Shown in pieces: positions 5,123 through 61,556 of a stretch of 64,000 nucleotides of DNA. This stretch comes from a virus (taxonomy: Duplodnaviria > Caudoviricetes). The DNA lies in IMG/VR virus record IMGVR_UViG_3300021255_002694. One strand, given 5' to 3'. How positions within the stretch are numbered: the first letter of the stretch is position 1; each line of letters begins with the position of its first letter. The notes below the pieces were generated by a model. The model was given only the letters and a program-made list of their open reading frames with translations. It made no database searches and had not been told where the DNA came from. Both the position numbers and the translations under genes were made by a program.

Positions 5123-5515
5123 ATGATTAAAAAGGAATTCAATAAACTTTATAAGGAAATTGAACAGATCAGACGAAAGATTGATTCTGGTAAACTCAAA
5201 TATTTCGGTGAAAAGAATTACATGAATGCATCCCCATATTATGTATTCCTCCGAAATGGGAAGTGGTTTAAGATTGAACTTGGTACAAAGATTATCCCTA
5301 CATTTAATAAGAATGATGTTGTGTTTATTCAGAAACATATCCTTCGTGATTCTACAGATACAAACTGGAAGTATACCCGTGATTATGTTGATAGTGACCG
5401 TGGATTCGTGAGATATTCTGGGTGTATCACAGATAATATTGATTACTTCCTTGATAGGGCAAACAAGTATAAGATAAATCTTGTTGATGAAATTGAAACA
5501 TATTATTGGGATTAA
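5123..5515 (+). CDS. Promoter-proximal hypothetical protein (paralog of 47094..47468)
   Basis: YVFLRNGKWF…NDVVFIQKH…STDT…YVDSDRG vs YFVIMGNGDLF…NDIVYIRKH…SIDT…YFDSDNG. Confidence 0.75.
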   Translation: MIKKEFNKLYKEIEQIRRKIDSGKLKYFGEKNYMNASPYYVFLRNGKWFKIELGTKIIPTFNKNDVVFIQKHILRDSTDTNWKYTRDYVDSDRGFVRYSGCITDNIDYFLDRANKYKINLVDEIETYYWD

Positions 5516-5530
5516 ATTGGAGTGATTTAT

Positions 5531-6103
5531 GTGAAACTAATGATAAGAGAAGATAGACTATCAATGTTGTCGGAAAGTGTCTTTTATAAGGCACTCCTTG
5601 AATTCCTCACGAAGGATACAGAGATAAAATACGCTGATGATTATATTGATAACTTTGATAAGTCGAAGAAACAGAGGTATGCAAAAGAATACCCGATCAG
5701 AGACATTAAAAATGACATTGCATCATTCATTGATGATTGGCTGAAAGAAATTAAAAGAGATTGTGATATATACTCTATGAAGAATAATCGTATGTCTGAT
5801 TCATATGGATTTTCTAATTATATTACTCTTTCATTTAATCGTCCGGCAGATCGTAGATTATACCAATTCTATCAAGATAACAGCGAAAAATATAATAATG
5901 TAAAATTTAGATTTTCAGAGCATGATCCTAAAAATGACACATCCGATATTGCCGATAGTGTGAACTTTGTCGGAAAGACGTTTAATCAGGCAGCAGATGA
6001 AATGAAGTGCAAAATTGAAAACTATGTAATTGATTTAAGATCAGCAGAAAAACAATATCTTAAAAAGCTAGATAAACAGGCAAAGAAAAAGAATCGGCGG
6101 TGA
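5531..6103 (+). CDS. Leader-bearing protein with YGxSNY…RFSEH motif (paralog of 21808..22362; possible nuclease fold)
   Basis: GTG start gives MKLMIRED; motifs shared with 21808. Confidence 0.7.
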   Translation: MKLMIREDRLSMLSESVFYKALLEFLTKDTEIKYADDYIDNFDKSKKQRYAKEYPIRDIKNDIASFIDDWLKEIKRDCDIYSMKNNRMSDSYGFSNYITLSFNRPADRRLYQFYQDNSEKYNNVKFRFSEHDPKNDTSDIADSVNFVGKTFNQAADEMKCKIENYVIDLRSAEKQYLKKLDKQAKKKNRR

Positions 6104-10171: not shown

Positions 10172-10525
10172 ATGATTAACAAGAAACAGAAATTGATCAA
10201 AGAGTTGGAAACTAAATTAGATAATTTTCGCAAGATGTACACGGAACTTGGTACTGAATTATCTAAAATTGAGAAAGATATTGCGATCTTAGAATTGATT
10301 GAATCTGGTGATTTGAAAGATGTTTATTTTGAATCAGACTTAGAGAAAATTCCAGAAACACCGTATTTTCCAAATCCAAGTACACCCCCATATTATAATC
10401 CAGTTGTAACACTTTATGGGTGTCCCACAGTAGGCGGAACAGGACTTCCTATTGATTATTACATGAATATCACATCTATCAACTCTGATGTAAAGGAAGA
10501 TTCAAATGAAGAAGAATCTAAATAA
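10172..10525 (+). CDS. Hypothetical coiled-coil protein
   Basis: ORF with SD. Confidence 0.6.
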   Translation: MINKKQKLIKELETKLDNFRKMYTELGTELSKIEKDIAILELIESGDLKDVYFESDLEKIPETPYFPNPSTPPYYNPVVTLYGCPTVGGTGLPIDYYMNITSINSDVKEDSNEEESK

Positions 10526-11000
10526 AGGTAAACCTCTTTTTGGTGATACTTCTAGTGCTGATCAGAGCGTTAAATTAAACAAGGTTGTAAAAGAAGATAA
10601 ACCAAAAAGAGGTAGACCTAAAAAGACCACAACTGTAAATGAACCTAAGAGTGAAACAGTTGTAAAACCTAAACAGAAACAACAGCCTATCAAACAGATT
10701 ACAAAGAAAAGAGTACCAGATCAGACAGATAAAAATGGTAAGTGGAGAGATTTCAATACATCTAAACCGGAATGCATGAAACCATGTGAGTTCTATGTCG
10801 ATACTGGAAAAGATAAAATTGATATCTTTTACGGGTATGTTGAAAGAGCCGGAGTAACAGTTACAGATGAACCGTATAAGATGCGAGTATTGCGTAAGAA
10901 ATATGGCAATCTTCAATACAGGGAAGTTAAAGGTTGTCAATCTGTAAATGACTGTCCGAATGGTTTTCCGCACTGTGATAAATGTAAGAAGAAGAATTGA
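10506..11000 (+). CDS. Basic protein with AT-hook-like KRGRPK motif and C-terminal Cys cluster
   Basis: KPKRGRPKK; C…C…HC..C. Confidence 0.6.
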   Translation: MKKNLNKGKPLFGDTSSADQSVKLNKVVKEDKPKRGRPKKTTTVNEPKSETVVKPKQKQQPIKQITKKRVPDQTDKNGKWRDFNTSKPECMKPCEFYVDTGKDKIDIFYGYVERAGVTVTDEPYKMRVLRKKYGNLQYREVKGCQSVNDCPNGFPHCDKCKKKN

Positions 11001-31362: not shown

Positions 31363-31380
31363 AATGTGAAAGGATTAGAT

Positions 31381-32559
31381 ATGCATAATATTTCAGTTGT
31401 AACAGGACTTAACTATGGGGATGAATCAAAAGGACTTGTCTCAAATGCACTTTCTGATAAAAATACGCTGACTATTCTGCCGTCTAATTCATGTCAAAGA
31501 GCGCATACTGTTGTAGAAAACGGAAAAAGAATTGTGTTCAGACATTTTGGTAGCGGCACTATTAAAGGTGCTGCTACCTATTTCACAGAAAATTTTATTA
31601 TCAATCCGGCAATGTTTAGAAAAGAATATGAAGAACTATCTAAACTTGGAATTACACCTAAAGTGTATGCAAGACTAGGTGATTTTCATGTTACGCCGAT
31701 TGACATGTTTGCAAATGTAGTGATTGAGAGATCAAGAGGTTCTGAATCACATAGTTCTACTGGATGCGGTGTATGGGAAACGATAAGACGAAATAAGGTA
31801 CTTCAAGATCAATTTAAGGTATATTTCGATAAAGATATTGTAGACTACTATAAAAACCACTTGATATTAGCAACTGGTAAACCACTATCTGATGAAATTC
31901 AATCATTCTTAAATGGTAAATACCTGATTCAAAACTGCCAATCTGATTTTGACTTTTTTATCAATCATGTAACTATCATTGATTCAGATGAAGAAGAAAA
32001 AGAACTTCTAATGTCTTATCCTAATATTGTATTTGAAAATGGTCAAGGTTTACTTCTTACTGATGAATATAGTATTGATTCTAAACATAATACGCCTGTA
32101 TATGTTGGGGCGCTAACTCCGGCAAAAATGATAGCAAAACAATTCACCGGAGAATTTTATGATCTTAACATGTATTATGTTTCCAGAACATACTATACAA
32201 GACACGGTAAAGGAATGATCGGTGTATCTTCTAATTGTGAATGCAGTAAAGAAGATATAAATGCAGATATGGTTGATCTTACAAATGTTCCAAATCCACA
32301 TCAAGGAACGCTTAGATATGGTAAATTTGCCGAAAAAGATGCACAAATCGCTGTTAAGAGAGCCGATTTTGATGCATCAAGACTTTTAGAGATCGGTATG
32401 CATGTTCCGGCATCAAAAAGAAATCTTGTCATAACACATGTTAATGAATATAATGACAGCATACTTTTATCTGCGGCGTGTTGCTCAGATAATCCAAAAA
32501 TGAATGTATTTACGTCAAGCGATGAAAGTACAATCAAAAAGTATTTCAGTATTGAATAA
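31381..32559 (+). CDS. Divergent adenylosuccinate synthetase (PurA)-like protein
   Basis: GLNYGDESKG, QRAHTV, RHFGSG, STGCGV, FENGQGLLL, TRHGKG, TN.PN..QGTLRYG. Confidence 0.8.
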   Translation: MHNISVVTGLNYGDESKGLVSNALSDKNTLTILPSNSCQRAHTVVENGKRIVFRHFGSGTIKGAATYFTENFIINPAMFRKEYEELSKLGITPKVYARLGDFHVTPIDMFANVVIERSRGSESHSSTGCGVWETIRRNKVLQDQFKVYFDKDIVDYYKNHLILATGKPLSDEIQSFLNGKYLIQNCQSDFDFFINHVTIIDSDEEEKELLMSYPNIVFENGQGLLLTDEYSIDSKHNTPVYVGALTPAKMIAKQFTGEFYDLNMYYVSRTYYTRHGKGMIGVSSNCECSKEDINADMVDLTNVPNPHQGTLRYGKFAEKDAQIAVKRADFDASRLLEIGMHVPASKRNLVITHVNEYNDSILLSAACCSDNPKMNVFTSSDESTIKKYFSIE

Positions 32560-33978: not shown

Positions 33979-34701
33979 ATGATTTATTACACAGGAGATA
34001 TTCACGCTGAATATAGAAATCCAAGAAAGATTGCAAAATTTGCAAAAAAGCATAATTTAACAGAAGATGATGTTATTGTCATTCTTGGTGATGTTGGTGT
34101 TAATTATTACGGGGAAGGTTCTGTTGAAGATAATACAATTAAATCAAGACTTAGTAGAATTAAACCAACACTTCTATGTATTCAAGGAAACCATGAAGAA
34201 AGACCTAAGAATATTTCAACATATAGAAAAAAGTTCTGGAAGAATGGATATGTTTATGTTGAAGATAAATTTCCTAAATTGCTTTTTGCGATTGATGGAA
34301 TGATCTACGATCTTGACGGAAAGGATACACTTGTTATCGGTGGTGCATATTCTGTTGATAAGTGGTATAGACTTGCAAACGGATATCAGTGGTTTGCGGA
34401 TGAACAACCAGACGATCAAATCAAACAGGAAACAGAGCAAGCAATGAGTGCTTGGGGATATGTATTCGATCAAATTCTGTCACACACATGTCCATATAAA
34501 TATCTTCCAACAGAAGCATTTTTACCACACGTAGATCAGTCAACTGTAGATCAGTCAACAGAGGAATGGCTTGATACGATTGAAGATAGATGCACTTATG
34601 GCAGATGGCTATGTGGTCACTATCATATTGATAAAGAGATTGATAAGGTAAGATTCATGTACAATGATTTTATTGACAATGATGGCAATAAAGTAGAATA
34701 A
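33979..34701 (+). CDS. Calcineurin-like metallophosphoesterase
   Basis: TGDIH, LGD.G, GNHE, GGA.SVD, SHTCP, GHYH. Confidence 0.9.
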   Translation: MIYYTGDIHAEYRNPRKIAKFAKKHNLTEDDVIVILGDVGVNYYGEGSVEDNTIKSRLSRIKPTLLCIQGNHEERPKNISTYRKKFWKNGYVYVEDKFPKLLFAIDGMIYDLDGKDTLVIGGAYSVDKWYRLANGYQWFADEQPDDQIKQETEQAMSAWGYVFDQILSHTCPYKYLPTEAFLPHVDQSTVDQSTEEWLDTIEDRCTYGRWLCGHYHIDKEIDKVRFMYNDFIDNDGNKVE

Positions 34702-35417
34702 TTATTTCAGACTACATATAAAGGGGTATAAGCATGAATCTCAAATACGCTATACAGAAGAAGTTTCCGAAATCACATGCTAGCCAATTTCGGGTATGGG
34801 ACGAGAACAACAATGAACTGTTCGACTATTCATCATATGCATCTGGAAACTACGATAAGCGGCTTCTGGATAAAGTAGTTATCGGAGTGTCAGAAACAAC
34901 TGTTCTTTACTCCAATACGACTATCTTGCATATCACAGTTGATACAGGTGTGAAGCGAATGCAAGAACTTATTGACGCTGCAATTACCATTAAGCGTCAC
35001 TGTGATATTTCTAAGTGCAATAGTGAAACATGCCCGTTCTGGAAGAACATCTGTGTTCTACGAGATGATGCACCGTCTGGATGGGATTTATAATGATGTG
35101 TATGTGGAGAGTATTATGGATGAAACGATTTTAGAGCATATTAAAGCGCTTATATGTTACTATCATACAGGTGATTACGTTTATGATCAAGTTCTTCACA
35201 GGGAGTTTAATGATTCATATGATGATGTTGTAAACTACCTTATTGACAATAATATTGTTGAAGTATCTGAGAGACTTGTTTGCCCAGAGTGCAGACAGTT
35301 TATTTCGGATGGCGATTTTAGCGGTGAAGTTGTCTGCTATCACTGTGGAAGAATTTATAGTGTTGATTCAGTAATTCATGAGAAAGTTTTTATAAAGTTG
35401 TGAGGTACACATATAAT

Positions 35418-35867
35418 ATGATTATATCAGGTTACATGTATAAATACGGAAATGAAATCGGTTCTTCTGGAACAGTTGCGTGTACCGAATCTATTAAGAA
35501 TGCAGTTACGAGGTTTGGCAGAGATTTTAACCAAGTGCCTTGTTTGCTTGGATATTCAAGAGATATTCCAGATCGTGCTGTAATTGGCGGATATAACATG
35601 GCAGATGTCTTAGGGTATGCGACACTAAAGGTGTGTGATGATGGAATATATGCATTTGTGAAAGTAATCGAAACACCTGCTGGAAGAACTATACTTAGTA
35701 TGGCAGATCATGAAATAATGGAACAATTCAAATTTGGATTTGCCTTGTACGGTGAACGTGTTGATACAAATGCAAATGGTTCGACTTTAGTTGGAAGTAT
35801 AACAATAGGATATATAACTCTGGCAGAAGATAATATTCATTACAAAATTGATAAGATTGAGAGGTAA
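35418..35867 (+). CDS. Prohead-protease (T4 gp21/S77-like) fold homolog lacking catalytic His/Ser
   Basis: DGIYAFVKVIETPAGRTILSM matches VYG.akildTP.G.il; GELDHP site reads LLGYSR and GVSSRG site reads GFALYG. Confidence 0.55.
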   Translation: MIISGYMYKYGNEIGSSGTVACTESIKNAVTRFGRDFNQVPCLLGYSRDIPDRAVIGGYNMADVLGYATLKVCDDGIYAFVKVIETPAGRTILSMADHEIMEQFKFGFALYGERVDTNANGSTLVGSITIGYITLAEDNIHYKIDKIER

Positions 35868-35872
35868 TTACA

Positions 35873-36349
35873 ATGGTTATTCGTTTTCATAATCCAGATG
35901 AGCCTAATGGCTATCTGAGTAATTGGTATCTGTCTGATTTTGAAATTGACAGAATTAAATTCACATCAATGGAACAGTATATGATGTATAAGAAAGCGAT
36001 CTGTTTCAAGGATAAAGAAGCTGCAAGAGAGATTCTTGCAACAAATGATGTTGGAAAGATTAAAGCACTTGGAAGAAGTGTAAAGAATTATGATGACCGC
36101 TACTGGAATGGTGTTCGGCAGATTATTGTGTATAACGGGCTACTTGCAAAGTTTTCGCAGAATGATGATCTAAGAGAGAAGTTGAAATCAACCGGAAATG
36201 CTATTCTTGCTGAATGTGCTGTGAATGACTTTATCTGGGGCATTGGTCTTTCTATGTACGATATTAGAGCAGACGATCCTAAAAAGTGGAAAGGTCAGGG
36301 CTTGCTCGGTTATTCCTTGATGCTTGTGAGGGATGCACTGTGTCAGTAA
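35873..36349 (+). CDS. NADAR (YbiA-like) family protein
   Basis: LSNWY, SMEQYMMYKKA.CF.D, IKALGRSV, KFSQN..L…L.STG…LAE…D.IWGIG. Confidence 0.92.
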   Translation: MVIRFHNPDEPNGYLSNWYLSDFEIDRIKFTSMEQYMMYKKAICFKDKEAAREILATNDVGKIKALGRSVKNYDDRYWNGVRQIIVYNGLLAKFSQNDDLREKLKSTGNAILAECAVNDFIWGIGLSMYDIRADDPKKWKGQGLLGYSLMLVRDALCQ

Positions 36350-37961: not shown

Positions 37962-40163
37962 ATGAGAACACTACTTTTGTTTCGTGGCGCACCTGGCTGT
38001 GGAAAATCAACATTTATTGATACTCACGGTCTAAGACCATATGCTCTGTCTGCTGATGATATCAGACAAACTTTGAGATCACCGATGCAGACAGCGGATG
38101 GAAGTGTACAGATTTGTCAAGATAATGAAAAAGAAGTTTGGGAACTTTTGTACAGAATGCTAGAAACTCGAATGCAAAAAGGAGAGTTTACAGTAATTGA
38201 TGCAACAAATTCAAAAACATCTGAAATGAATAAATATAAGGATTTGTGCGGAGAGTACAGGTACAGAATGTTCTGTATTGATATGACTGATCTGCCTATT
38301 GATGAATGTAAGCGTAGAAATGCTGGTAGAATTCCTCTAAAGAGAGTTCCGGAAGATTGCATTGATAAAATGTATTCAAGATTCAGAACACAGAAAATTC
38401 CATCTGGCATTAAGGTGATTAAGACTGAAAGTGATTTTAATTCTATGCTTATGCATAAACTTGATATGTCAAGTTATGAGAAAATTGTTGTTGTAGGTGA
38501 TTTACATGGCTGTAATACAGCACTAATGGAATACTTTAACGACGGTCTTAATGATAATTATTTCTATATCTTTGTAGGGGATTATATTGATCGTGGAATT
38601 GAAAATGCAGAAGTAATTAAATTCCTACTAAGTATCTATGAAAAGAAAAATGTTCTGCTTCTTGAAGGAAACCACGAGAGATGGATAAAAGCATACTCTA
38701 ATGAAGAAGTATCAAGATCAAAAGAGTTTGAATTTGTAACAAAGAAACAGCTTGATGCGGCAGATATCAGCAAGAAAGACCTAAGACAACTTTGTAGAAA
38801 ACTAGGTCAGGCTGCATGGTTTACATATGGTGATAAAGAAGTTGTTGTAACTCATGGTGGTATTGCAACAATGCCTGAAAATCTTACATATATGGCAACA
38901 ACTCAAATGATTCATGGTGTTGGAGATTATAATGATTCTGATATTATCGCAGATACATGGCTGAGAACAACAGCAGATAATATGTATCAAGTTCACGGTC
39001 ATAGAAATGTTAAAAATGTTCCAATGAAAGTGAATGATCGTGTATACAACCTAGAGGGAAAAGTTGAATTTGGTGGATTTCTTAGAATCCTAGAACTTGA
39101 TAAAGATGGATTCCATGAAGTTGAAATTAAGAACACCGTATTTAAGACTCCGGAAGCTATTGCTCAAAGTGTTTCTCTTTCCGATTCCTCTATTGCAGAT
39201 ATTGTTCTGAAAATGCGTCAGAATAAATTTATTCAAGAGAAGTCATATGGTAATATTTCTTCTTTCAATTTTACACGAGAAGCATTTTATGGAGATGTTT
39301 GGGATGATCAAACCGTTAAAGCAAGAGGTCTATATATTGACACAAATAGGATGAAAGTTTCATGTCGCGGATTTGTTAAGTTCTTTAACATAAATGAACG
39401 TCCTGAGTGTCGCTTTGAGATGCTACAGCACACACTCCAATTCCCAGTGACATGCTATGTAAAAGAAAACGGATTTCTAGGTCTTGTTTCATATAATCCA
39501 GATACAGATGATCTATTCATTACAACAAAATCAAGTCCAGATGGACCGTTCGCGGAATGGCTAAAAGACATGGTATATAGAAAAGTTCAAAACATTGATC
39601 TTATGAAACAGATTTGTAAGGAACAGGATGTTACATTTGTATTTGAGTGTGTGGATATGAAGAATGATCCGCATATCATTAAATATCAAGATGATGAACT
39701 TTTCTTGCTTGCTATTGTTAAGAACAGCATGGATTTCATTCAGTATGAATACGGTGATCTTGTAAATACTGCAAATGAAATTGGTGTTAAGTGCAAGACA
39801 AAGGCTGTTGAACTTGGAACATGGGCTGAATTTGTTGACTGGTATAATGAAGTTCTTGATCCTGATTATGAATTTAATGGAAGAATCATTGAGGGATTTG
39901 TTATTGAAGATTCTGCCGGATACATGACAAAGGTAAAGTTGACATATTACAATTTCTGGAAATTTATGCGCGGACTTACACATGAAGTTCTGCAAAGAGG
40001 TTATTTCCATAAAACATCTGCATTGACAACACCAACAGCAAATGATTATTACGGATTCATTAAAAATGTATTTGATACTACAGATAAGGAAACAAGGCAA
40101 TCTTTGCCTAGAGATATTATCTATTGGCGTGATAAGTTTTATAAAGAGAAAGGAAGTAACTAA
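37962..40163 (+). CDS. Trifunctional RNA repair enzyme: polynucleotide kinase + metallophosphatase + RNA ligase (Pnkp-like)
   Basis: GAPGCGKST and DATN (AAA_33); GDLHG, GDYIDRG, GNHE, HGG; ligase KENG and EGFVI. Confidence 0.9.
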   Translation: MRTLLLFRGAPGCGKSTFIDTHGLRPYALSADDIRQTLRSPMQTADGSVQICQDNEKEVWELLYRMLETRMQKGEFTVIDATNSKTSEMNKYKDLCGEYRYRMFCIDMTDLPIDECKRRNAGRIPLKRVPEDCIDKMYSRFRTQKIPSGIKVIKTESDFNSMLMHKLDMSSYEKIVVVGDLHGCNTALMEYFNDGLNDNYFYIFVGDYIDRGIENAEVIKFLLSIYEKKNVLLLEGNHERWIKAYSNEEVSRSKEFEFVTKKQLDAADISKKDLRQLCRKLGQAAWFTYGDKEVVVTHGGIATMPENLTYMATTQMIHGVGDYNDSDIIADTWLRTTADNMYQVHGHRNVKNVPMKVNDRVYNLEGKVEFGGFLRILELDKDGFHEVEIKNTVFKTPEAIAQSVSLSDSSIADIVLKMRQNKFIQEKSYGNISSFNFTREAFYGDVWDDQTVKARGLYIDTNRMKVSCRGFVKFFNINERPECRFEMLQHTLQFPVTCYVKENGFLGLVSYNPDTDDLFITTKSSPDGPFAEWLKDMVYRKVQNIDLMKQICKEQDVTFVFECVDMKNDPHIIKYQDDELFLLAIVKNSMDFIQYEYGDLVNTANEIGVKCKTKAVELGTWAEFVDWYNEVLDPDYEFNGRIIEGFVIEDSAGYMTKVKLTYYNFWKFMRGLTHEVLQRGYFHKTSALTTPTANDYYGFIKNVFDTTDKETRQSLPRDIIYWRDKFYKEKGSN

Positions 40164-46615: not shown

Positions 46616-46924
46616 ATGAAATTGAGAATAAGAGAATCTTCGGTTGATCCGCTAAATACAGTAAATCAAAATATAATTGCGGTCTTAAATTCTATTGAAA
46701 GAAGATTAGACAATATTGAATTTGATACTGTTCAAATAGATGACGGATATCTTGAAGTAAAGGCTATGAATACAGAAACAGATCAAAGTTGTTCATATGT
46801 ACTAGATATCTATAAGGGAGAACTAAATGTTGCATGTGACTGGTCAGATCGTATTCATAAATTCAGTGATATTGATTCATTCAAGGATTGGCTTGAAGAT
46901 GATATTGCAGATAACTTAATCTAA
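46616..46924 (+). CDS. Acidic protein with MKLRIRES leader; paralog of the C-terminal domain of 48207
   Basis: HKFSDIDSFKDWLEDDI vs EKFYDFKSFIDWLDEDI. Confidence 0.72.
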   Translation: MKLRIRESSVDPLNTVNQNIIAVLNSIERRLDNIEFDTVQIDDGYLEVKAMNTETDQSCSYVLDIYKGELNVACDWSDRIHKFSDIDSFKDWLEDDIADNLI

Positions 46925-54884: not shown

Positions 54885-57800
54885 ATGCTTAAAAGCATTG
54901 TTAATGGTGCTGAACATGATATTGTAAGTATTCCTATGAAAGGGAAGAATTTATCTTCATTTGATGCAATCACATATCTAAACGATGATTCCTATTATGT
55001 GTCTTACCGTATACTCAATTCGATACCAGAGGGTTCATATACATTGTCATATTTCGTTGATGTTGATCCTAGTGTGGATTCGCTTGCTGCATCCATCGGT
55101 GTCGGTTCAACGATATATGAGAAAGATATCAAAATTGTTAATAGCATTGATCCTGGATATATAAATATACCATTTTCAATAACAGATGCCGACGCTGGTA
55201 AAAATTTATTTGTGCGGTTTGTAAGAAGTGGATCAAAATTTACTGCAACAATCACCGTCACAAAAGTCATGCTAAACACAGGTTCAACTGCATTACCATA
55301 TGAACCATATGGATATCAAAATGGATGGGAAGTAAGAGATAATCAAAATAGACTTATATGGGGAAGAGAAGATGAACTTCAAACAACTACAGGAACTCTA
55401 CCATTTAAAGGATATGGATTAGATATTAAAGAATATAGTATAGACGGTAATATGGTTCAAGCGGCGGAAAAAGAATATTCTATTACTGGTACATCTCCTT
55501 TAGATTTTCAAAGTAATGGTTCTAATGCTACTATTTCTATTTCCGGAAATGAAACACAAGCATCTAATCAATCATATACTACTTCTTGTACTTCTCCATT
55601 ATCTTTTAATGCAGATGGAACTAATCTTACTGCATTATCTATGGATGGAAATATGAATCAAGCTAGTAGTCAACCTTATACTGTTTCTGGTACTTCACCG
55701 ATCAGTTTTATGAATAATGGTACTGCTATTGATTATACTGTTTCCGGAAATATGTCACAATCTGGTACTCCTACTCCTACATCTCCTATTACTCCACAAG
55801 AATGTGGAGAGAGAACTAATCAGCTTATACCTTATCCATATTATAGTGCAGATGGAGTATATGATGGGATTACATTCACTACAGATGGAAATAAGATAGT
55901 TGCTAATGGTACAACATCGACAGGATATAATTTCTATCTTTGGAGAGTTGATAAATTTCCGGCTGGAACATATACTCTCAGCGTGACTGGAACACATACA
56001 GGTGCTAGTATTTATGTAAGAGATGTTACAAATTCAACTACTATTGTAGGTATTTTCGGTGGTCAGACTGGTGATCGTCAAATATCATTTACGACAACAG
56101 AAGAATTGCAAGTATATGTTTATATAAATTCCAGCGGTACGGGAACTGTTGATTTTGACTGTTCTATAATGTTAAATGAGGGTTCAACGGCATTGCCATA
56201 TGAGCCAAATCTATATAAAGTACCTCTAACAATAGCCGGAAATACACAAAATATTTATATTAAAGAGCCATTAAGAAAAATTGGTGATTATTCTGATACT
56301 GTTAATTCAGATGGTAGTGTTACAAGAGTTATTAAGAAAATTGTATTGACAGGTGCGGAATCTGAGTGGTCTAGTGTTGGAGGTCAGGCACCATTTCTAT
56401 TAACTATATCCGGTTATTCTGAAATTTCAAAATCAGTTCCGTATTATATGAGTTCACATTTCAAGCCTATTGCATATGATGATCTATGGGGAACAAATGA
56501 TAACTTTATTGTGACATATCAAACTGGTTTTCGGTTTAAGTACAGTACGTTAGGTACTGATCTAAATGATTTTAAGACATGGCTTTCAACACAGTATGAA
56601 AATAATAATCCAATAACAGTTTGGTATGCACTTCAAATTCCACAAACAGATACAGCAACAGTACCAACAATAACACCAACATCAGGAAATAATACATTAT
56701 CAGTAGATACTACTTTAGCTCCATCTAATATTACAGTTACTTCTAATTCTTCTGTTTTTCCTGAAAATCCTATTACTCCTATTGAATGTGGTGTTCTAAG
56801 TGAAAATCTATTCGATAATAACCAGACCACAACGAATGAGAACGGTGCTGAAAGACCTGGTGTAGAACTTCCAGTCGGAACATACTCTATCTATAATACA
56901 TCAGGTCAAGCTGTGTATTATCGTATCGGTGATAGTGGAACTGGCGCACAAGTAAACAATGGTAATTCAAAAGCAAACATAGTAGCGAATGATACATTGT
57001 ATGTGTGGCAATATCCTAAAAAAGACGGTGTTATGGTTATTGAGGGTGCTACCGCACCGACTGAATATGAACCTTATGGAAAATATAAAATTCCAGTAAC
57101 AGTAGGTTCAACTACCAAAAATATATTTATAAATCAGCCACTTAGAAAAATAGGTAATTATAGTGATAGTATTGGTAGTGATGGTGTTGTTACAAGGAAT
57201 ATTAAGAAGTTGGTGCTTGATGGTACGGAGAACTGGTCATCATATAGCGAAGTTGTTTATTTACAAGACATAATTGATTATGCAAAAATTGATAATATTA
57301 TTTGCATGTGTACGCACTATGAGCCGCAAACAAATGTTGACGGAGTTGCTGAAACAGATACAGGGCATATAGCATTTGGTAAAAGTTCAAACTATAGACT
57401 TAACATTCATGATGCAAATATAAACAACGCAACAGATTATAAACTATTTCTTGCTGACGAATACTCAGCCGGTCATCCAGTAGAAGTCTGGTACATATTA
57501 GCAACACCAGATACAACAGAAACAACTACTATACCAACAATATCAACAGTAAATGGAGCAAATACTCTTACTACAGGAACTCCTATAACTCCATCTAATA
57601 TTACTATTTCTACTTCTTCTTCTGTCTATCCTAAGAATCCTATATATCCAGAAGAATGTGGAGATAGGACTGGTAATGTTCTTGATCTTGATGCATACCT
57701 TAAAAGAGATAATAACGGATATACAAAAAGCGGTAGCACTTATACTATCCCAATGCAAGCATCTTTGTTTGCAAATCCTTGGTATTTTTCCAATGAGGAT

Positions 57801-60800
57801 GTTCCGATAAGTATAAGTGGCACTATGCAAACATTAACTGGTACAAATATCCGAATTTATATTGTAAAACGTGATGGAGCTGTTTCTGGTTCTATTGCAC
57901 TAGGCGGAACTGGAAATGTAACAAAGACAGAAAACAGGTTAGGTGCCGGAATAAAGTTCGATTATACCTCTATTGGAACATGCACTGTATCTAACCTTAT
58001 GGTCAATTTCGGATCAACTGCACTTCCTTATGAACCATATGGATATAAAATACCAGTAACAATAGGTAGCAATACTAATTATATCTATACTAAAGAACCT
58101 ATTAGAAAAATTGGTAATTATGCTGATGTGGTTAATAGTGATGGTAGTATTACTAGATATATTAAGAAGATCGAGTTAAATGGAACAGAAAATATCATTC
58201 TTGGTTCTCCACAATCCGGAGGAAATGTATTTTCTATAACTGATCAAGATACAATAACAAGCAATGGTTCGTATTCAATATCTAATTACTATCGAAACGT
58301 ATATGGTAATAGTGGCGAGTACACATACATTTACAATGGAAGGATTATCCTACTAGATAAAAGCCATAGTACAGTCACATCATTTAAACAGTGGTTATCT
58401 GATGAATACAATTCGGGTAATCCAGTATGTGTGTGGTATGTAATGCAAACTCCAACAGCAGAACAAACAACAATACCAACACTAACAACAGTAAATGGAA
58501 CAAATACAGCAACAATAGGAACTACTCTAGCCCCATCAAGTATTACTATAAATGCCACTTCTAAAGTATATCCTAATAATCCTATTATTCCTGAATTTTG
58601 TGGAGTTAGGACAGAGAATCTTATTGATGCTACGATGTATGACAATCTTGCAAAATCTGTAGCATATCTATCTATGCTAGTATCCGTTCCGATTGTAACA
58701 TTGACGTCACCAGAAGGACTATACACAAGAGTTGTTTGGACACAATCAATGAATCCTGATACAAGAATCCATGAAAGTAACTGGATAACATCTGGAAACA
58801 GTGCAACATTTGATCTTGCATCATATAGTGATGCTGATTGTTTTAAGATAGAGTTTCGCAATGTCGAATATTCAATTTTAACTGATGAAGATATTGCACG
58901 TAGATTCAATATCATGCTTAACACTGGTTCTACTGCACTTCCTTATGAACCATATGGATATAAAATATCTTTTAATAATAATGGAGAGAATTTGTTTGAT
59001 TGTGATAGAACAGATGGCATTATTGATAATTCGTATATCAGAAAATCAGACAGTGAAATCGTAACAGACACAGACTACTATATCAGTTATCCTATTTATG
59101 TTTCTGAGAATGTGACATATACATGGAGATTTGATAGTGACACAAGTACAACACATTCAGCACCTACTGTCGGATTTTATGATTCATTAGATAACATGAT
59201 AGGAACTGCACCGCATGGTAACGGACTAACATATTTTTCATTCACTACTCCAAATGGGTGTAAATACATTCGTGCGTCTGTTTATAAGCATAACAACTTT
59301 CAGAGAGAAGCAATGCTTAATCTCGGATCAACACCATTACCATATTCTCCATATCTAAATAAAACAACTCCTATATATCTTAGTGAAGTTCCTACTATAA
59401 GAAGAATTAAGAAATTGGTGTTGACAGGAGATGGAGAATATCAAAATTACTCATATGATGGTACTAACGGTGTCCGAATCTTGAATATGTTGAAAACAAC
59501 ATACAAAAGAGCAGATGGGTTATGCAATATTTGTAAAGTATCAACAGTCGCAGGTATACGTCATTGTTTATGGATAGGTTCTGGTGGTGGTGATCCTCAC
59601 TTGTATTTTATATCCATACTTTCAGATATGGGACTATCCGATGCATCTGAGTTTAAATCATGGGTTGCACAACAATATCAAAACGGTACTCCGGTTACAA
59701 TATGGTATGCACTTGCAAATCCGGAAACAGGAATAGTAAATGAACCATTAGCAAAAATAGGAAATTATGCAGATGAACTAACAGAAATATCTGTTCATAA
59801 TCTTTCTGCTCCATTATATGGTATTGGAGATTATAAAGATATTCTAAATCTTTCTACTGGTGTTTTGACTAGGAAGATTAGGAAATTGGTGTTGGACGGC
59901 GTAAACGATGGAGAATGGAAAAAATCTTCAACGAGAACAGGCTCATTCTATTTGAATGTTGGAGTGAACGCAATCACTTCTTTAGGCTTATGTGACCGTG
60001 CTGTTAATGTGGATACAATCAGTCAGTACGATTCCATTGGAAAAATGTTCGTTGAATCAAGCGGTTCATCAAAGTTGATAAACTTGTGGCTTTTCGATAC
60101 CAATATATCGCTTGATGATTTCAAAGCATTTCTCGCCGCCCAGTACGCAAACGGAACCCCAGTCACGGTCTGGTACGTGTTGAATACTCCTAAAACCGAA
60201 ACTGTCACAGTTCCAACAGGAATGACAGGAGAAATAGAAGGATATTTAACACAGATCAGTACACCAACTCCGGAACATCCAAGTATACCGAAATGGAATG
60301 GAAAAGAAGAAACTGGTGGTACATATGCAGTTACAGTTTATGATCTTCCTGAAATTCCTACAACTACAGGAAAAAATACTTTGACAGTAGATACAACTCT
60401 AGCACCATATGATGTAACTATAAATGGACATATAAGATACACATATTGGGGTAAAATACGTGAAGATGTTAGAAGTGGATTGGCTCAAACAAAATTCCCA
60501 GTTGGAACAATCTTATATGATAACGAAGATGCAACAACAGGAAGAGCATTTCAAGTTGTAGGATATGATAAACATTTTGATCCATCACTAACAGCACGAG
60601 GATTCACTCATAGTATGACATTGTGTCAGTTAAAACTATCCGGACCGTGGCAATATGACGCAATAGAAGCATTTTTATATACAACTGTTGAAATGCAACC
60701 TGGAACATATAAATTCAAAATACCTAACTATGATACAACATATGGCGGTAATAAAACATACTATTTTACTTCTACTGCAACCGTTCCAGTTGATAGTCAA

Positions 60801-61556
60801 ATTGTATTAAAATGGGATTATCAAAAACCACCTGCTTCTGTAACTGCATATGCTGGTCCAAATCCGCAAACAAATACAACAGCAATAACAGGATTTAACG
60901 CTTTAACACTTACAGAATGGGTTGAGGGTGAATCACCGGAAGCTATTGATTTAGGAACAATAAAACTAGCAAACAATGATCCAGACAGTGCATATGGTAA
61001 ACTAAATCATATTCAACGTGCAAGATATGGTTCAAACAATTATTATCAATCTGGTTTGAGACAGTTATTGAATACAGACCTTGCGGCAAATAACTGGTGG
61101 CATCCAGCTACTATATTTGATAGACCATATGCAAATAGAACAACAAATGGTTATTTAAGATCACTAAATGAAGATTTTATAAATGTACTAGCAACACCTG
61201 AAATTACTAATATAACAAATAATGTATTTGAATATCCATCATTAGACGGAAGAACATTTGCACTAAATACAGAATATAAGATAAATACAGATAAGGTATT
61301 CTTACTATCTCATACAGAAGTTGGTCTATCTTCATCACCGAATGTTGGAACAGTATTAGATTATTATAGTACACATAATACAAATAATGATAGAATAAAG
61401 TATAGAATTGATAATGGAAATGCTTATCATTGGTGGTTTAGAACTCCTTACCCGTCTTACGCTCACGATTTCCGGTATTGTAGCACTTCGGGTGCTTTGG
61501 ACGTCAGCCATGCTCTCAATTACCTGTGCGTCGCCCCCGCTCACATCATCCAGTAA
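54885..61556 (+). CDS. Large tail-fibre/adhesin with repeated modules and a C-terminal CLec (DUF6273-like) DGR target domain
   Basis: Repeated TGSTALPYEPYG / EPLRKIG.Y.D / VWY.L.TP modules; C-terminus RYGSNNY..S.LRQ.LN…DKVFLLS..EVG…WWFRTP…VAPA.II. Confidence 0.85.
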   Translation: MLKSIVNGAEHDIVSIPMKGKNLSSFDAITYLNDDSYYVSYRILNSIPEGSYTLSYFVDVDPSVDSLAASIGVGSTIYEKDIKIVNSIDPGYINIPFSITDADAGKNLFVRFVRSGSKFTATITVTKVMLNTGSTALPYEPYGYQNGWEVRDNQNRLIWGREDELQTTTGTLPFKGYGLDIKEYSIDGNMVQAAEKEYSITGTSPLDFQSNGSNATISISGNETQASNQSYTTSCTSPLSFNADGTNLTALSMDGNMNQASSQPYTVSGTSPISFMNNGTAIDYTVSGNMSQSGTPTPTSPITPQECGERTNQLIPYPYYSADGVYDGITFTTDGNKIVANGTTSTGYNFYLWRVDKFPAGTYTLSVTGTHTGASIYVRDVTNSTTIVGIFGGQTGDRQISFTTTEELQVYVYINSSGTGTVDFDCSIMLNEGSTALPYEPNLYKVPLTIAGNTQNIYIKEPLRKIGDYSDTVNSDGSVTRVIKKIVLTGAESEWSSVGGQAPFLLTISGYSEISKSVPYYMSSHFKPIAYDDLWGTNDNFIVTYQTGFRFKYSTLGTDLNDFKTWLSTQYENNNPITVWYALQIPQTDTATVPTITPTSGNNTLSVDTTLAPSNITVTSNSSVFPENPITPIECGVLSENLFDNNQTTTNENGAERPGVELPVGTYSIYNTSGQAVYYRIGDSGTGAQVNNGNSKANIVANDTLYVWQYPKKDGVMVIEGATAPTEYEPYGKYKIPVTVGSTTKNIFINQPLRKIGNYSDSIGSDGVVTRNIKKLVLDGTENWSSYSEVVYLQDIIDYAKIDNIICMCTHYEPQTNVDGVAETDTGHIAFGKSSNYRLNIHDANINNATDYKLFLADEYSAGHPVEVWYILATPDTTETTTIPTISTVNGANTLTTGTPITPSNITISTSSSVYPKNPIYPEECGDRTGNVLDLDAYLKRDNNGYTKSGSTYTIPMQASLFANPWYFSNEDVPISISGTMQTLTGTNIRIYIVKRDGAVSGSIALGGTGNVTKTENRLGAGIKFDYTSIGTCTVSNLMVNFGSTALPYEPYGYKIPVTIGSNTNYIYTKEPIRKIGNYADVVNSDGSITRYIKKIELNGTENIILGSPQSGGNVFSITDQDTITSNGSYSISNYYRNVYGNSGEYTYIYNGRIILLDKSHSTVTSFKQWLSDEYNSGNPVCVWYVMQTPTAEQTTIPTLTTVNGTNTATIGTTLAPSSITINATSKVYPNNPIIPEFCGVRTENLIDATMYDNLAKSVAYLSMLVSVPIVTLTSPEGLYTRVVWTQSMNPDTRIHESNWITSGNSATFDLASYSDADCFKIEFRNVEYSILTDEDIARRFNIMLNTGSTALPYEPYGYKISFNNNGENLFDCDRTDGIIDNSYIRKSDSEIVTDTDYYISYPIYVSENVTYTWRFDSDTSTTHSAPTVGFYDSLDNMIGTAPHGNGLTYFSFTTPNGCKYIRASVYKHNNFQREAMLNLGSTPLPYSPYLNKTTPIYLSEVPTIRRIKKLVLTGDGEYQNYSYDGTNGVRILNMLKTTYKRADGLCNICKVSTVAGIRHCLWIGSGGGDPHLYFISILSDMGLSDASEFKSWVAQQYQNGTPVTIWYALANPETGIVNEPLAKIGNYADELTEISVHNLSAPLYGIGDYKDILNLSTGVLTRKIRKLVLDGVNDGEWKKSSTRTGSFYLNVGVNAITSLGLCDRAVNVDTISQYDSIGKMFVESSGSSKLINLWLFDTNISLDDFKAFLAAQYANGTPVTVWYVLNTPKTETVTVPTGMTGEIEGYLTQISTPTPEHPSIPKWNGKEETGGTYAVTVYDLPEIPTTTGKNTLTVDTTLAPYDVTINGHIRYTYWGKIREDVRSGLAQTKFPVGTILYDNEDATTGRAFQVVGYDKHFDPSLTARGFTHSMTLCQLKLSGPWQYDAIEAFLYTTVEMQPGTYKFKIPNYDTTYGGNKTYYFTSTATVPVDSQIVLKWDYQKPPASVTAYAGPNPQTNTTAITGFNALTLTEWVEGESPEAIDLGTIKLANNDPDSAYGKLNHIQRARYGSNNYYQSGLRQLLNTDLAANNWWHPATIFDRPYANRTTNGYLRSLNEDFINVLATPEITNITNNVFEYPSLDGRTFALNTEYKINTDKVFLLSHTEVGLSSSPNVGTVLDYYSTHNTNNDRIKYRIDNGNAYHWWFRTPYPSYAHDFRYCSTSGALDVSHALNYLCVAPAHIIQ
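61431..61556 (+). repeat. Putative DGR variable region (VR)
   Basis: Abrupt GC rise; variable positions are NNC/NNT codons (TAC, CAC, GAT, TTC, AGC, GAC, GTC, CAT, CTC…) as expected from AAC/AAT templates; ends in GC-rich GTCGCCCCCGC. Confidence 0.75.

Follow-up and report, generated by a model that had tools for sequence, protein, structure and literature searches.

A probable stand-alone pseudo-protease of the prohead protease fold in an accessory operon of very large rumen and gut phages

The DNA analysed here, which we call the window, is a stretch of 64,000 nucleotides from a virus of the Caudoviricetes, and an earlier note on it had placed a gene of interest at positions 35418 to 35867. 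An open reading frame lies at exactly these positions (35418..35867, + strand), with an ATG at 35418 and a TAA at 35865-35867, and it encodes a protein of 149 amino acids, P0001, which begins with MIISGY and comprises a fold core only. A Shine-Dalgarno-like GAGG (35402-35405, + strand) is located 12 nt 5' of the ATG, and GAGG or GGAGG precedes the same ATG in 10 homologous loci of the P0001 family. A scan for sigma-70 promoters identified 55 sites versus 52 in shuffled sequence, showing no excess, and a scan for terminators gave a handful. The strings that had drawn attention to this protein are all present in its translation, namely GTVACTESIKNAV (residues 18-30), DGIYAFVKVIETPAGRTILSM (residues 75-95), LLGYSR (residues 43-48) and GFALYG (residues 107-112), and the T4 gp21 motifs with which they had been compared were confirmed as GELNHP and GVSSRG.

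The most constant neighbour of the gene is a calcineurin-like metallophosphoesterase of 240 amino acids (33979..34701, + strand; PF00149, E 3.3e-10; phrog_1649), which had no match among PDB sequences and, as to its subfamily, gave a weak YfcE signal. In three lineages of related loci (L001-3, L114/115 and L116) the stop codon of the phosphoesterase gene overlaps the start of the P0001 homologue in an ATGA, and in the window, L113 and L008 the phosphoesterase is found one to two genes upstream. Between the two genes in the window lie two small ORFs (34734..35403, + strand) encoding proteins of 119 and 99 amino acids, the second with a CPxC...CxxC zinc ribbon. The same pair is found in L113 at 5322-5993 and is absent from L114, L001 and L116, whose flanking genes overlap; these small ORFs are a recent insertion into the operon. 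Upstream of the metallophosphoesterase is a gene for an AP2-domain protein.

On the downstream side, a NADAR-domain protein is encoded 6 nt past the P0001 stop codon (35873..36349, + strand; PF08719, E 2.2e-46; TIGR02464, E 1.1e-40), as had been noticed earlier, and a NADAR gene follows the homologous gene in most relatives. The best score of the NADAR protein is to TIGR02464, a riboflavin-intermediate N-glycosidase domain model, and in the 217-kb relative L001 there are two NADAR genes (260-679 and 10475-10945), the additional copy lying 10 kb upstream. Three unknown ORFs separate the NADAR gene from one encoding a 733 amino acid RNA-repair fusion (37962..40163, + strand), in which a PNK (AAA_33) domain, a metallophosphatase domain and a T4 Rnl1-type RNA ligase are joined. 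This fusion lies less than 10 kb from the P0001 homologue in four lineages. A single chain thus holds everything needed for tRNA repair. In L006, by contrast, ligase and kinase are encoded by two genes, with an HD domain on the kinase.

Other parts of the neighbourhood differ from phage to phage. Genes for Lar, HNH and TnpB proteins vary in their presence among the relatives of this locus, and mobile elements are found within a few kb of the homologous gene in L002 (11276-13067), L008 (1766-3016) and L001 (11899-13140). These elements include IS605-type OrfB/TnpB (Cas12f-like) genes, accompanied by a resolvase in L002, and an RRXRR-HNH endonuclease. The presence of such elements near the gene in relatives indicates that the region is a hot spot of gene turnover. 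Three distant members of the family (L006, L010 and L007) have quite different neighbours and no adjacent phosphoesterase. Further upstream in the window, a 397 amino acid homologue of adenylosuccinate synthetase (31366-32559, + strand; PF00709, E 8.4e-16) falls far under every PurA cut-off and has a faint similarity to PurZ (NF038379, E 3.3e-4); its upstream position is conserved in L002, L113 and L114. The protein could act in purine salvage or, as a PurZ-like enzyme, in making 2-aminoadenine DNA.

The gene had also been described as lying among accessory, counter-defence-like genes and away from any head genes, and this description held: no head gene was found among the window proteins scanned or in the flanks of the relatives, and neither the window nor 15 related context loci yielded an S77 or S78 protease. 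The sole virion-type signal among the approximately 27 window proteins scanned lies 19 kb from P0001, in a protein of 2223 amino acids (54885-61556, + strand) whose C-terminal 400 residues or so match phrog_19280 and overlap a match to the Hoc-like head-decoration family phrog_10993.

At the level of sequence, the relationship of P0001 to prohead proteases is faint and recurs in one member of the family after another. The top Pfam match of P0001 is Peptidase_S78 (PF04586), with an E-value of 0.0031 and a score of 18.1 bits, below the gathering cut-off of 21, and four homologues that are 31-75% identical to it (P0026, P0023, P0016 and P0018) each match Peptidase_S78 alone at 15.4-20.1 bits (E 7.5e-4 to 0.02). 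No match of P0001 to Peptidase_S77 (PF03420) was found at E<=10, and an HMM built from nine S77 proteases gave an E-value of 7.1. When all ORFs of the window and the 15 related loci were ranked by an HMM of 11 annotated HK97-type proteases, the ORFs of the P0001 family came first. Comparison by hhalign with single sequences was uninformative (HK97 gp4 alone gave a probability of 0.2%), and alignments of 11 S78 and nine S77 proteases were therefore built; with these, the P0001 family matched the S78 proteases at E 2.9e-5 (probability 73.5%) and the T4-type S77 proteases at E 3e-4 (probability 40%). A collection of diverse S78 proteases from IMG/VR yielded near-identical copies of HK97 only, and a profile search of PDB sequences with the P0001 family gave only matches at chance level.

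The structural evidence is stronger. An AlphaFold2 model of P0001 made from the family alignment has a pLDDT of 86.4 and a pTM of 0.83, and residues 1-149 form one domain. In an all-against-representatives search, its best structural match is T4 gp21 (5jbl_A), with a Z-score of 11.9 and an rmsd of 2.5 A over 126 residues; residues 1-138 of the model match residues 38-172 of gp21, and identity is about 11%. The proteases of Varicella-zoster virus, cytomegalovirus and KSHV follow with Z-scores of 9.1, 8.2 and 7.1, compared to 5.7 or less for unrelated MCE-domain proteins. Foldseek against the PDB retrieved assemblins and gp21 only, among the matches listed, and a search of BFVD gave 143 matches at E<=1e-3 (best 6.7e-8), and among the matches listed most are named prohead proteases. 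In the ESM Atlas the model reached a TM-score of 0.77 to a Peptidase_S77 cluster and of 0.71 to an S78 cluster. A model of P0026, which is 31% identical to P0001, ranked the known structures in the same way (gp21 Z 10.4), the alignment being shared so that this second model is not fully independent of the first.

The similarity to prohead proteases for which a structural search had been suggested was thus found, and the proposed resemblance to T4 gp21 stands as far as the best solved structure is concerned. By sequence P0001 is, so far as these profiles can tell, slightly nearer to the HK97-type S78 proteases than to the T4-type S77 proteases, and in the predicted model the two families appear about equally near. 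Given this leaning toward S78, P0001 may not be a recent copy of the protease of this phage.

The catalytic residues of the fold are another matter. Gp21-type enzymes have a His/Ser/Asp catalytic triad (PMC5694885), and in our alignment of nine true S77 proteases His85, Ser140 and Asp168 (T4 numbering) are among the invariant residues, as are His65, Ser114 and Glu141 (HK97 numbering) in the alignment of 11 true S78 proteases. By hhalign against S77, the His85 site of gp21 is occupied in P0001 by Tyr46 (codon at 35553..35555, + strand), as had been proposed from the LLGYSR string, and family members that possess this segment have either Tyr or Phe there. His65 of HK97 aligns with Tyr59 or with Tyr46, depending on the alignment. 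The Ser-x-Gly of the HK97-type enzymes falls on Lys105-Phe106-Gly107 (codons at 35730..35738, + strand), with S114 aligned to K105 and G116 to G107 by hhalign against S78; across the family position 105 is Lys, Arg, Gln or Asn, and Gly107 is invariant. The earlier note was right that the serine is lost, there being no Ser at the aligned position; the register that it assumed is ambiguous, since Ser140 of T4 falls on Lys105, on Phe108 or on the Ala109 of that note, all within a segment (QFKFGFALYG, residues 103-112) that has no Ser. The strand that carries the third catalytic residue, Asp168 in gp21 and Glu141 in HK97, holds the invariant Tyr132 (codon at 35811..35813, + strand) in an extended hhalign alignment of low confidence, in which Asp168 aligns to a gap beside Tyr132 and Glu141 to Thr129 or near Tyr132. 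In the family this strand reads I-x-Y-I-[TV]-L and has no acidic residue.

Only Met1, Gly76, Gly107 and Tyr132 are invariant across the P0001 family, and its alignment shows no conserved Ser, His, Asp, Glu or Cys, which makes the ambiguity of the serine register immaterial. The claim that the protein is a catalytically dead homologue is therefore borne out by the absence of the triad and of any conserved alternative catalytic residue in the family. Gly66, Gly76 and Gly107 of P0001 match the structural glycines Gly73, Gly84 and Gly116 of HK97 gp4, and Ile77 matches Leu85. Structural glycines have been retained where catalytic residues have been removed, a pattern that marks a pseudoenzyme and not a gene in decay.

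The family has its own pattern of occurrence. A word-indexed search of 5.8 billion proteins returned 20 clusters at 63-89% identity to P0001, all unnamed and metagenomic, on contigs that reach 217 kb. An exhaustive search of 1.84 billion representatives with the family profile matched just 10 proteins and supplied members of 134-165 amino acids with identities down to 24%; there were no annotated proteases and no convincing fusions among the 10, and the sole long match to the profile is P0029 (1068 amino acids, E 6.6e-4). A phage-genome collection held no match to P0001 by DNA search or tblastn, and no relatives of the family were found in a search of IMG/VR. More than 25 clusters, with identities as low as 24%, retain an uninterrupted reading frame. 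Between P0001 and those relatives for which dS is unsaturated (approximately 0.6), pairwise dN/dS is 0.08-0.18, indicating that the protein is kept by purifying selection. We can say with high confidence that P0001 is a stand-alone pseudo-protease, with the prohead-protease/herpesvirus-assemblin fold, with all three catalytic residues lost, under purifying selection, and belonging to a lineage of very large rumen and gut phages.

Proteins of a similar kind have been described before. SPN3US gp117 and its relatives are diverged paralogues of giant-phage head proteases without the C-terminal part, and were called unprecedented by the authors who described them (Ali et al. 2017, PMC5694885); members include 201phi2-1 gp206 (145 aa), PhiPA3 gp143 (136 aa), Erwinia phage Stratton gp135 and Kwan gp144 (PMC5694885). 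Those authors proposed that such paralogues are not loaded into proheads, the C-terminal region being thought to target the enzyme there (PMC5694885). Like the gp117 type, P0001 is a short protease core (approximately 135-160 amino acids in these proteins) with no C-terminal targeting region, and it too is encoded in a very large phage away from the head protease, neither head genes nor a protease having been found in the window or in the flanks of its relatives. The two differ in that SPN3US gp117 retains the aligned Ser and Asp (PMC5694885), whereas the P0001 family has lost all three catalytic residues, and in their weak Pfam signals, which are to Peptidase_S80 for gp117 and to S78 for P0001. 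Unlike gp117, the P0001 family belongs to a lineage with I/L-x-E (T4-like) leaders and shares its operon with genes for a phosphoesterase, NADAR and RNA repair. No sequence kinship between the P0001 family and gp117 was detected by hhalign (probability 0.3%, E 0.19). Truncated protease paralogues of giant phages were thus already described in 2017 (PMC5694885), and the P0001 family is the same kind of object.

P0001 shares with T4 gp21 (S77, PF03420, 5JBL) an I-x-G start, a hairpin followed by a D/E-T-P-x-G helix cap, and the order of secondary structure elements, but it has neither of the extensions that gp21 carries at both ends, matches none of His85, Ser140 and Asp168, and is not encoded beside scaffold or capsid genes. 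HK97 gp4 (S78, PF04586) gives the strongest sequence-profile signal, yet its His65, Ser114, Glu141 and Ser143 are not retained in P0001, and its approximately 60 further C-terminal residues, which serve in capsid targeting, are missing. The genes for S78 proteases are directly upstream of the capsid gene in all 10 examples compared, mostly right after the portal gene, while that for P0001 lies between the phosphoesterase and NADAR genes. T4 Inh, to which the T4 record gives the description 'minor head protein inhibitor of protease', offers an analogy of role only, as a phage protein that restrains the head protease of its own phage; Inh is a minor head protein by annotation, whereas P0001 has no capsid-targeting signal. 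As relatives of the P0001 family, Inh (hhalign probability 0.35%) and the T4 prohead core protein gp68 were compared and proved unrelated.

Other short proteins (122-144 amino acids) that share the fold and are unnamed or labelled 'uncharacterized' occur in BFVD and the ESM Atlas, for example in Yersinia phage fHe-Yen9-04 and Vibrio phage River4. In the ESM Atlas many unnamed viral clusters of 128-143 amino acids have features or a shape that suggest a similarity to P0001. Core-only proteins of the protease fold may be common in phage dark matter.

What P0001 might do can be considered in relation to a sequence motif found elsewhere in the window. A leader of the form M.{1,4}[IL].E[SN] is present at 11 ORF starts on the + strand (3938, 6109, 20893, 21808, 46616, 47486, 48564, 49597, 49904, 50288 and 50722), as in MKLRIRES, MKLSIRES and MIKIINES, versus none on the - strand; MKLRIRES is the start of the gene at 46616. 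T4 gp21 cleaves after I/L-x-E (PMC12991175; PMC5694885), and the leaders fit a T4-like tag for capsid targeting and cleavage carried by many unrelated proteins. P0001 has no such leader (M-K-L-x-I-x-E-S at the N terminus) and no C-terminal targeting tail, ending with the fold core at residue 149. It is therefore expected to stay in the cytoplasm, and the missing tail matches the idea, put forward for gp117, of paralogues that are not loaded into proheads (PMC5694885).

The role for P0001 that we rank first, though tentatively, would be to bind without cutting, in the cytoplasm, either I/L-x-E segments or the protease of the phage itself; we infer the binding, the partner and the effect alike. 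A non-catalytic reader of the I-x-E leaders had been suggested in the earlier note as well. As a rule, pseudoenzymes whose cleft is intact go on binding the ligand of their ancestor. In P0001 the glycines that shape the cleft are retained, suggesting that the cleft has survived, and the catalytic sites are filled by Tyr, Lys and Tyr, and we therefore propose binding without cutting. The partner would be either the I/L-x-E segments recognised by the head protease of the phage or that protease, and in the cytoplasm P0001 could help to confine cleavage to the prohead, for instance by protecting the leaders of the many tagged cargo proteins up to the time of loading or by holding free protease inactive. 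Such a role would make sense in a phage unusually dependent on protease-clipped leaders. Three points argue against it. By sequence P0001 leans toward the HK97-type proteases and may not be a recent copy of the protease of this phage. Regulators of head assembly are usually encoded in the late head module, and P0001 is encoded in one operon with a phosphoesterase, NADAR and RNA-repair enzymes. Moreover, P0001 bound to leaders would risk blocking their proper processing.

The gene neighbourhood raises another possibility, namely that the fold has been put to use apart from proteolysis and that P0001 assists the upstream metallophosphoesterase, as its partner or as a subunit that sets its specificity, or forms another part of an operon for nucleic acid repair and removal of ADP-ribose. 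The constancy of the phosphoesterase as a neighbour, with its overlap of the start codon in three lineages, speaks for this, as does the PNK-phosphatase-Rnl1 fusion within 10 kb in four lineages. However, the distant members L006, L010 and L007 have no phosphoesterase alongside, and the ORFs inserted between the two genes in two lineages show that tight coupling is not required. All of the loci come from related phages, and synteny may therefore be merely inherited. We consider this second use of the fold rather doubtful.

A third possibility takes up the suggestion of the earlier note that P0001 is a decoy against protease-sensing defence. The background to that suggestion is correct: a 2026 report describes CBASS CD-NTases that are activated when the prohead protease cuts an exposed loop, which needs the active site of the protease (PMC12991175), and the prohead protease as a CBASS trigger figures in a bioRxiv preprint as well (10.1101/2023.05.21.541620). 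P0001 would then act as a shield or decoy in counter-defence, by occupying host tripwires such as the activation loops of CBASS CD-NTases against the head protease, or by soaking up a sensor that recognises the fold. Because triggering of CBASS needs the protease active site (PMC12991175), a look-alike that does not cut would not set off the alarm, and both the counter-defence-type neighbours (NADAR, the RNA-repair fusion, and Lar in relatives) and the hypervariability of the region in relatives, with its inserted ORFs, HNH and TnpB genes, are in keeping with such a role. On the other hand, no anti-defence protein of the prohead protease fold is reported in the literature that was searched, a binder of I/L-x-E loops would compete with the substrates of the phage itself, and a decoy for a sensor that recognises the fold is expected to trigger that sensor and not to block it. 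We regard a shield or decoy as unlikely. A more specific version, in which P0001 is an immune-evasion protein whose retained cleft sits on the I/L-x-E loops of CBASS CD-NTases so that abortive infection is not set off, perhaps together with the preceding phosphoesterase, is in our judgement quite improbable; if true, P0001 would be the first anti-defence protein derived from a disarmed copy of the very enzyme that the defence senses.

That P0001 is still a working peptidase, by way of unconventional catalytic residues, is hardly credible. The fold is intact and under selection, SPN3US gp117 keeps Ser and Asp, and Thr86 is nearly invariant in the P0001 family; but there is no conserved pair of nucleophile and base, the aligned positions hold no His, His98 and His141 of P0001 vary, Val replaces Cys42 in two members, and in one member Ala replaces Thr86. 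Even less can be said for a decaying remnant or chance ORF without function, to which the Pfam score under threshold and the lack of a match in the phage-genome and IMG/VR collections might point, against the dN/dS of 0.08-0.18, the unbroken frame of more than 25 clusters with identities as low as 24%, the confident fold predictions and the conserved ribosome-binding site.

Dead or short copies of the protease fold look widespread and under-annotated in phages, and specialists familiar with the 2017 description would find the present pseudo-protease unsurprising. If binding to leader, protease and tripwire should all fail to hold, P0001 would simply add to the accessory proteins in which an old fold has been reused. 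The P0001 family is nevertheless a clean and testable case, with the triad lost, the fold preserved and strong selection, and the occurrence of P0001 together with I/L-x-E leaders in the same phage, combined with the 2026 report that many CBASS systems sense head-protease activity, turns a vague idea of a decoy into one that can be tested.
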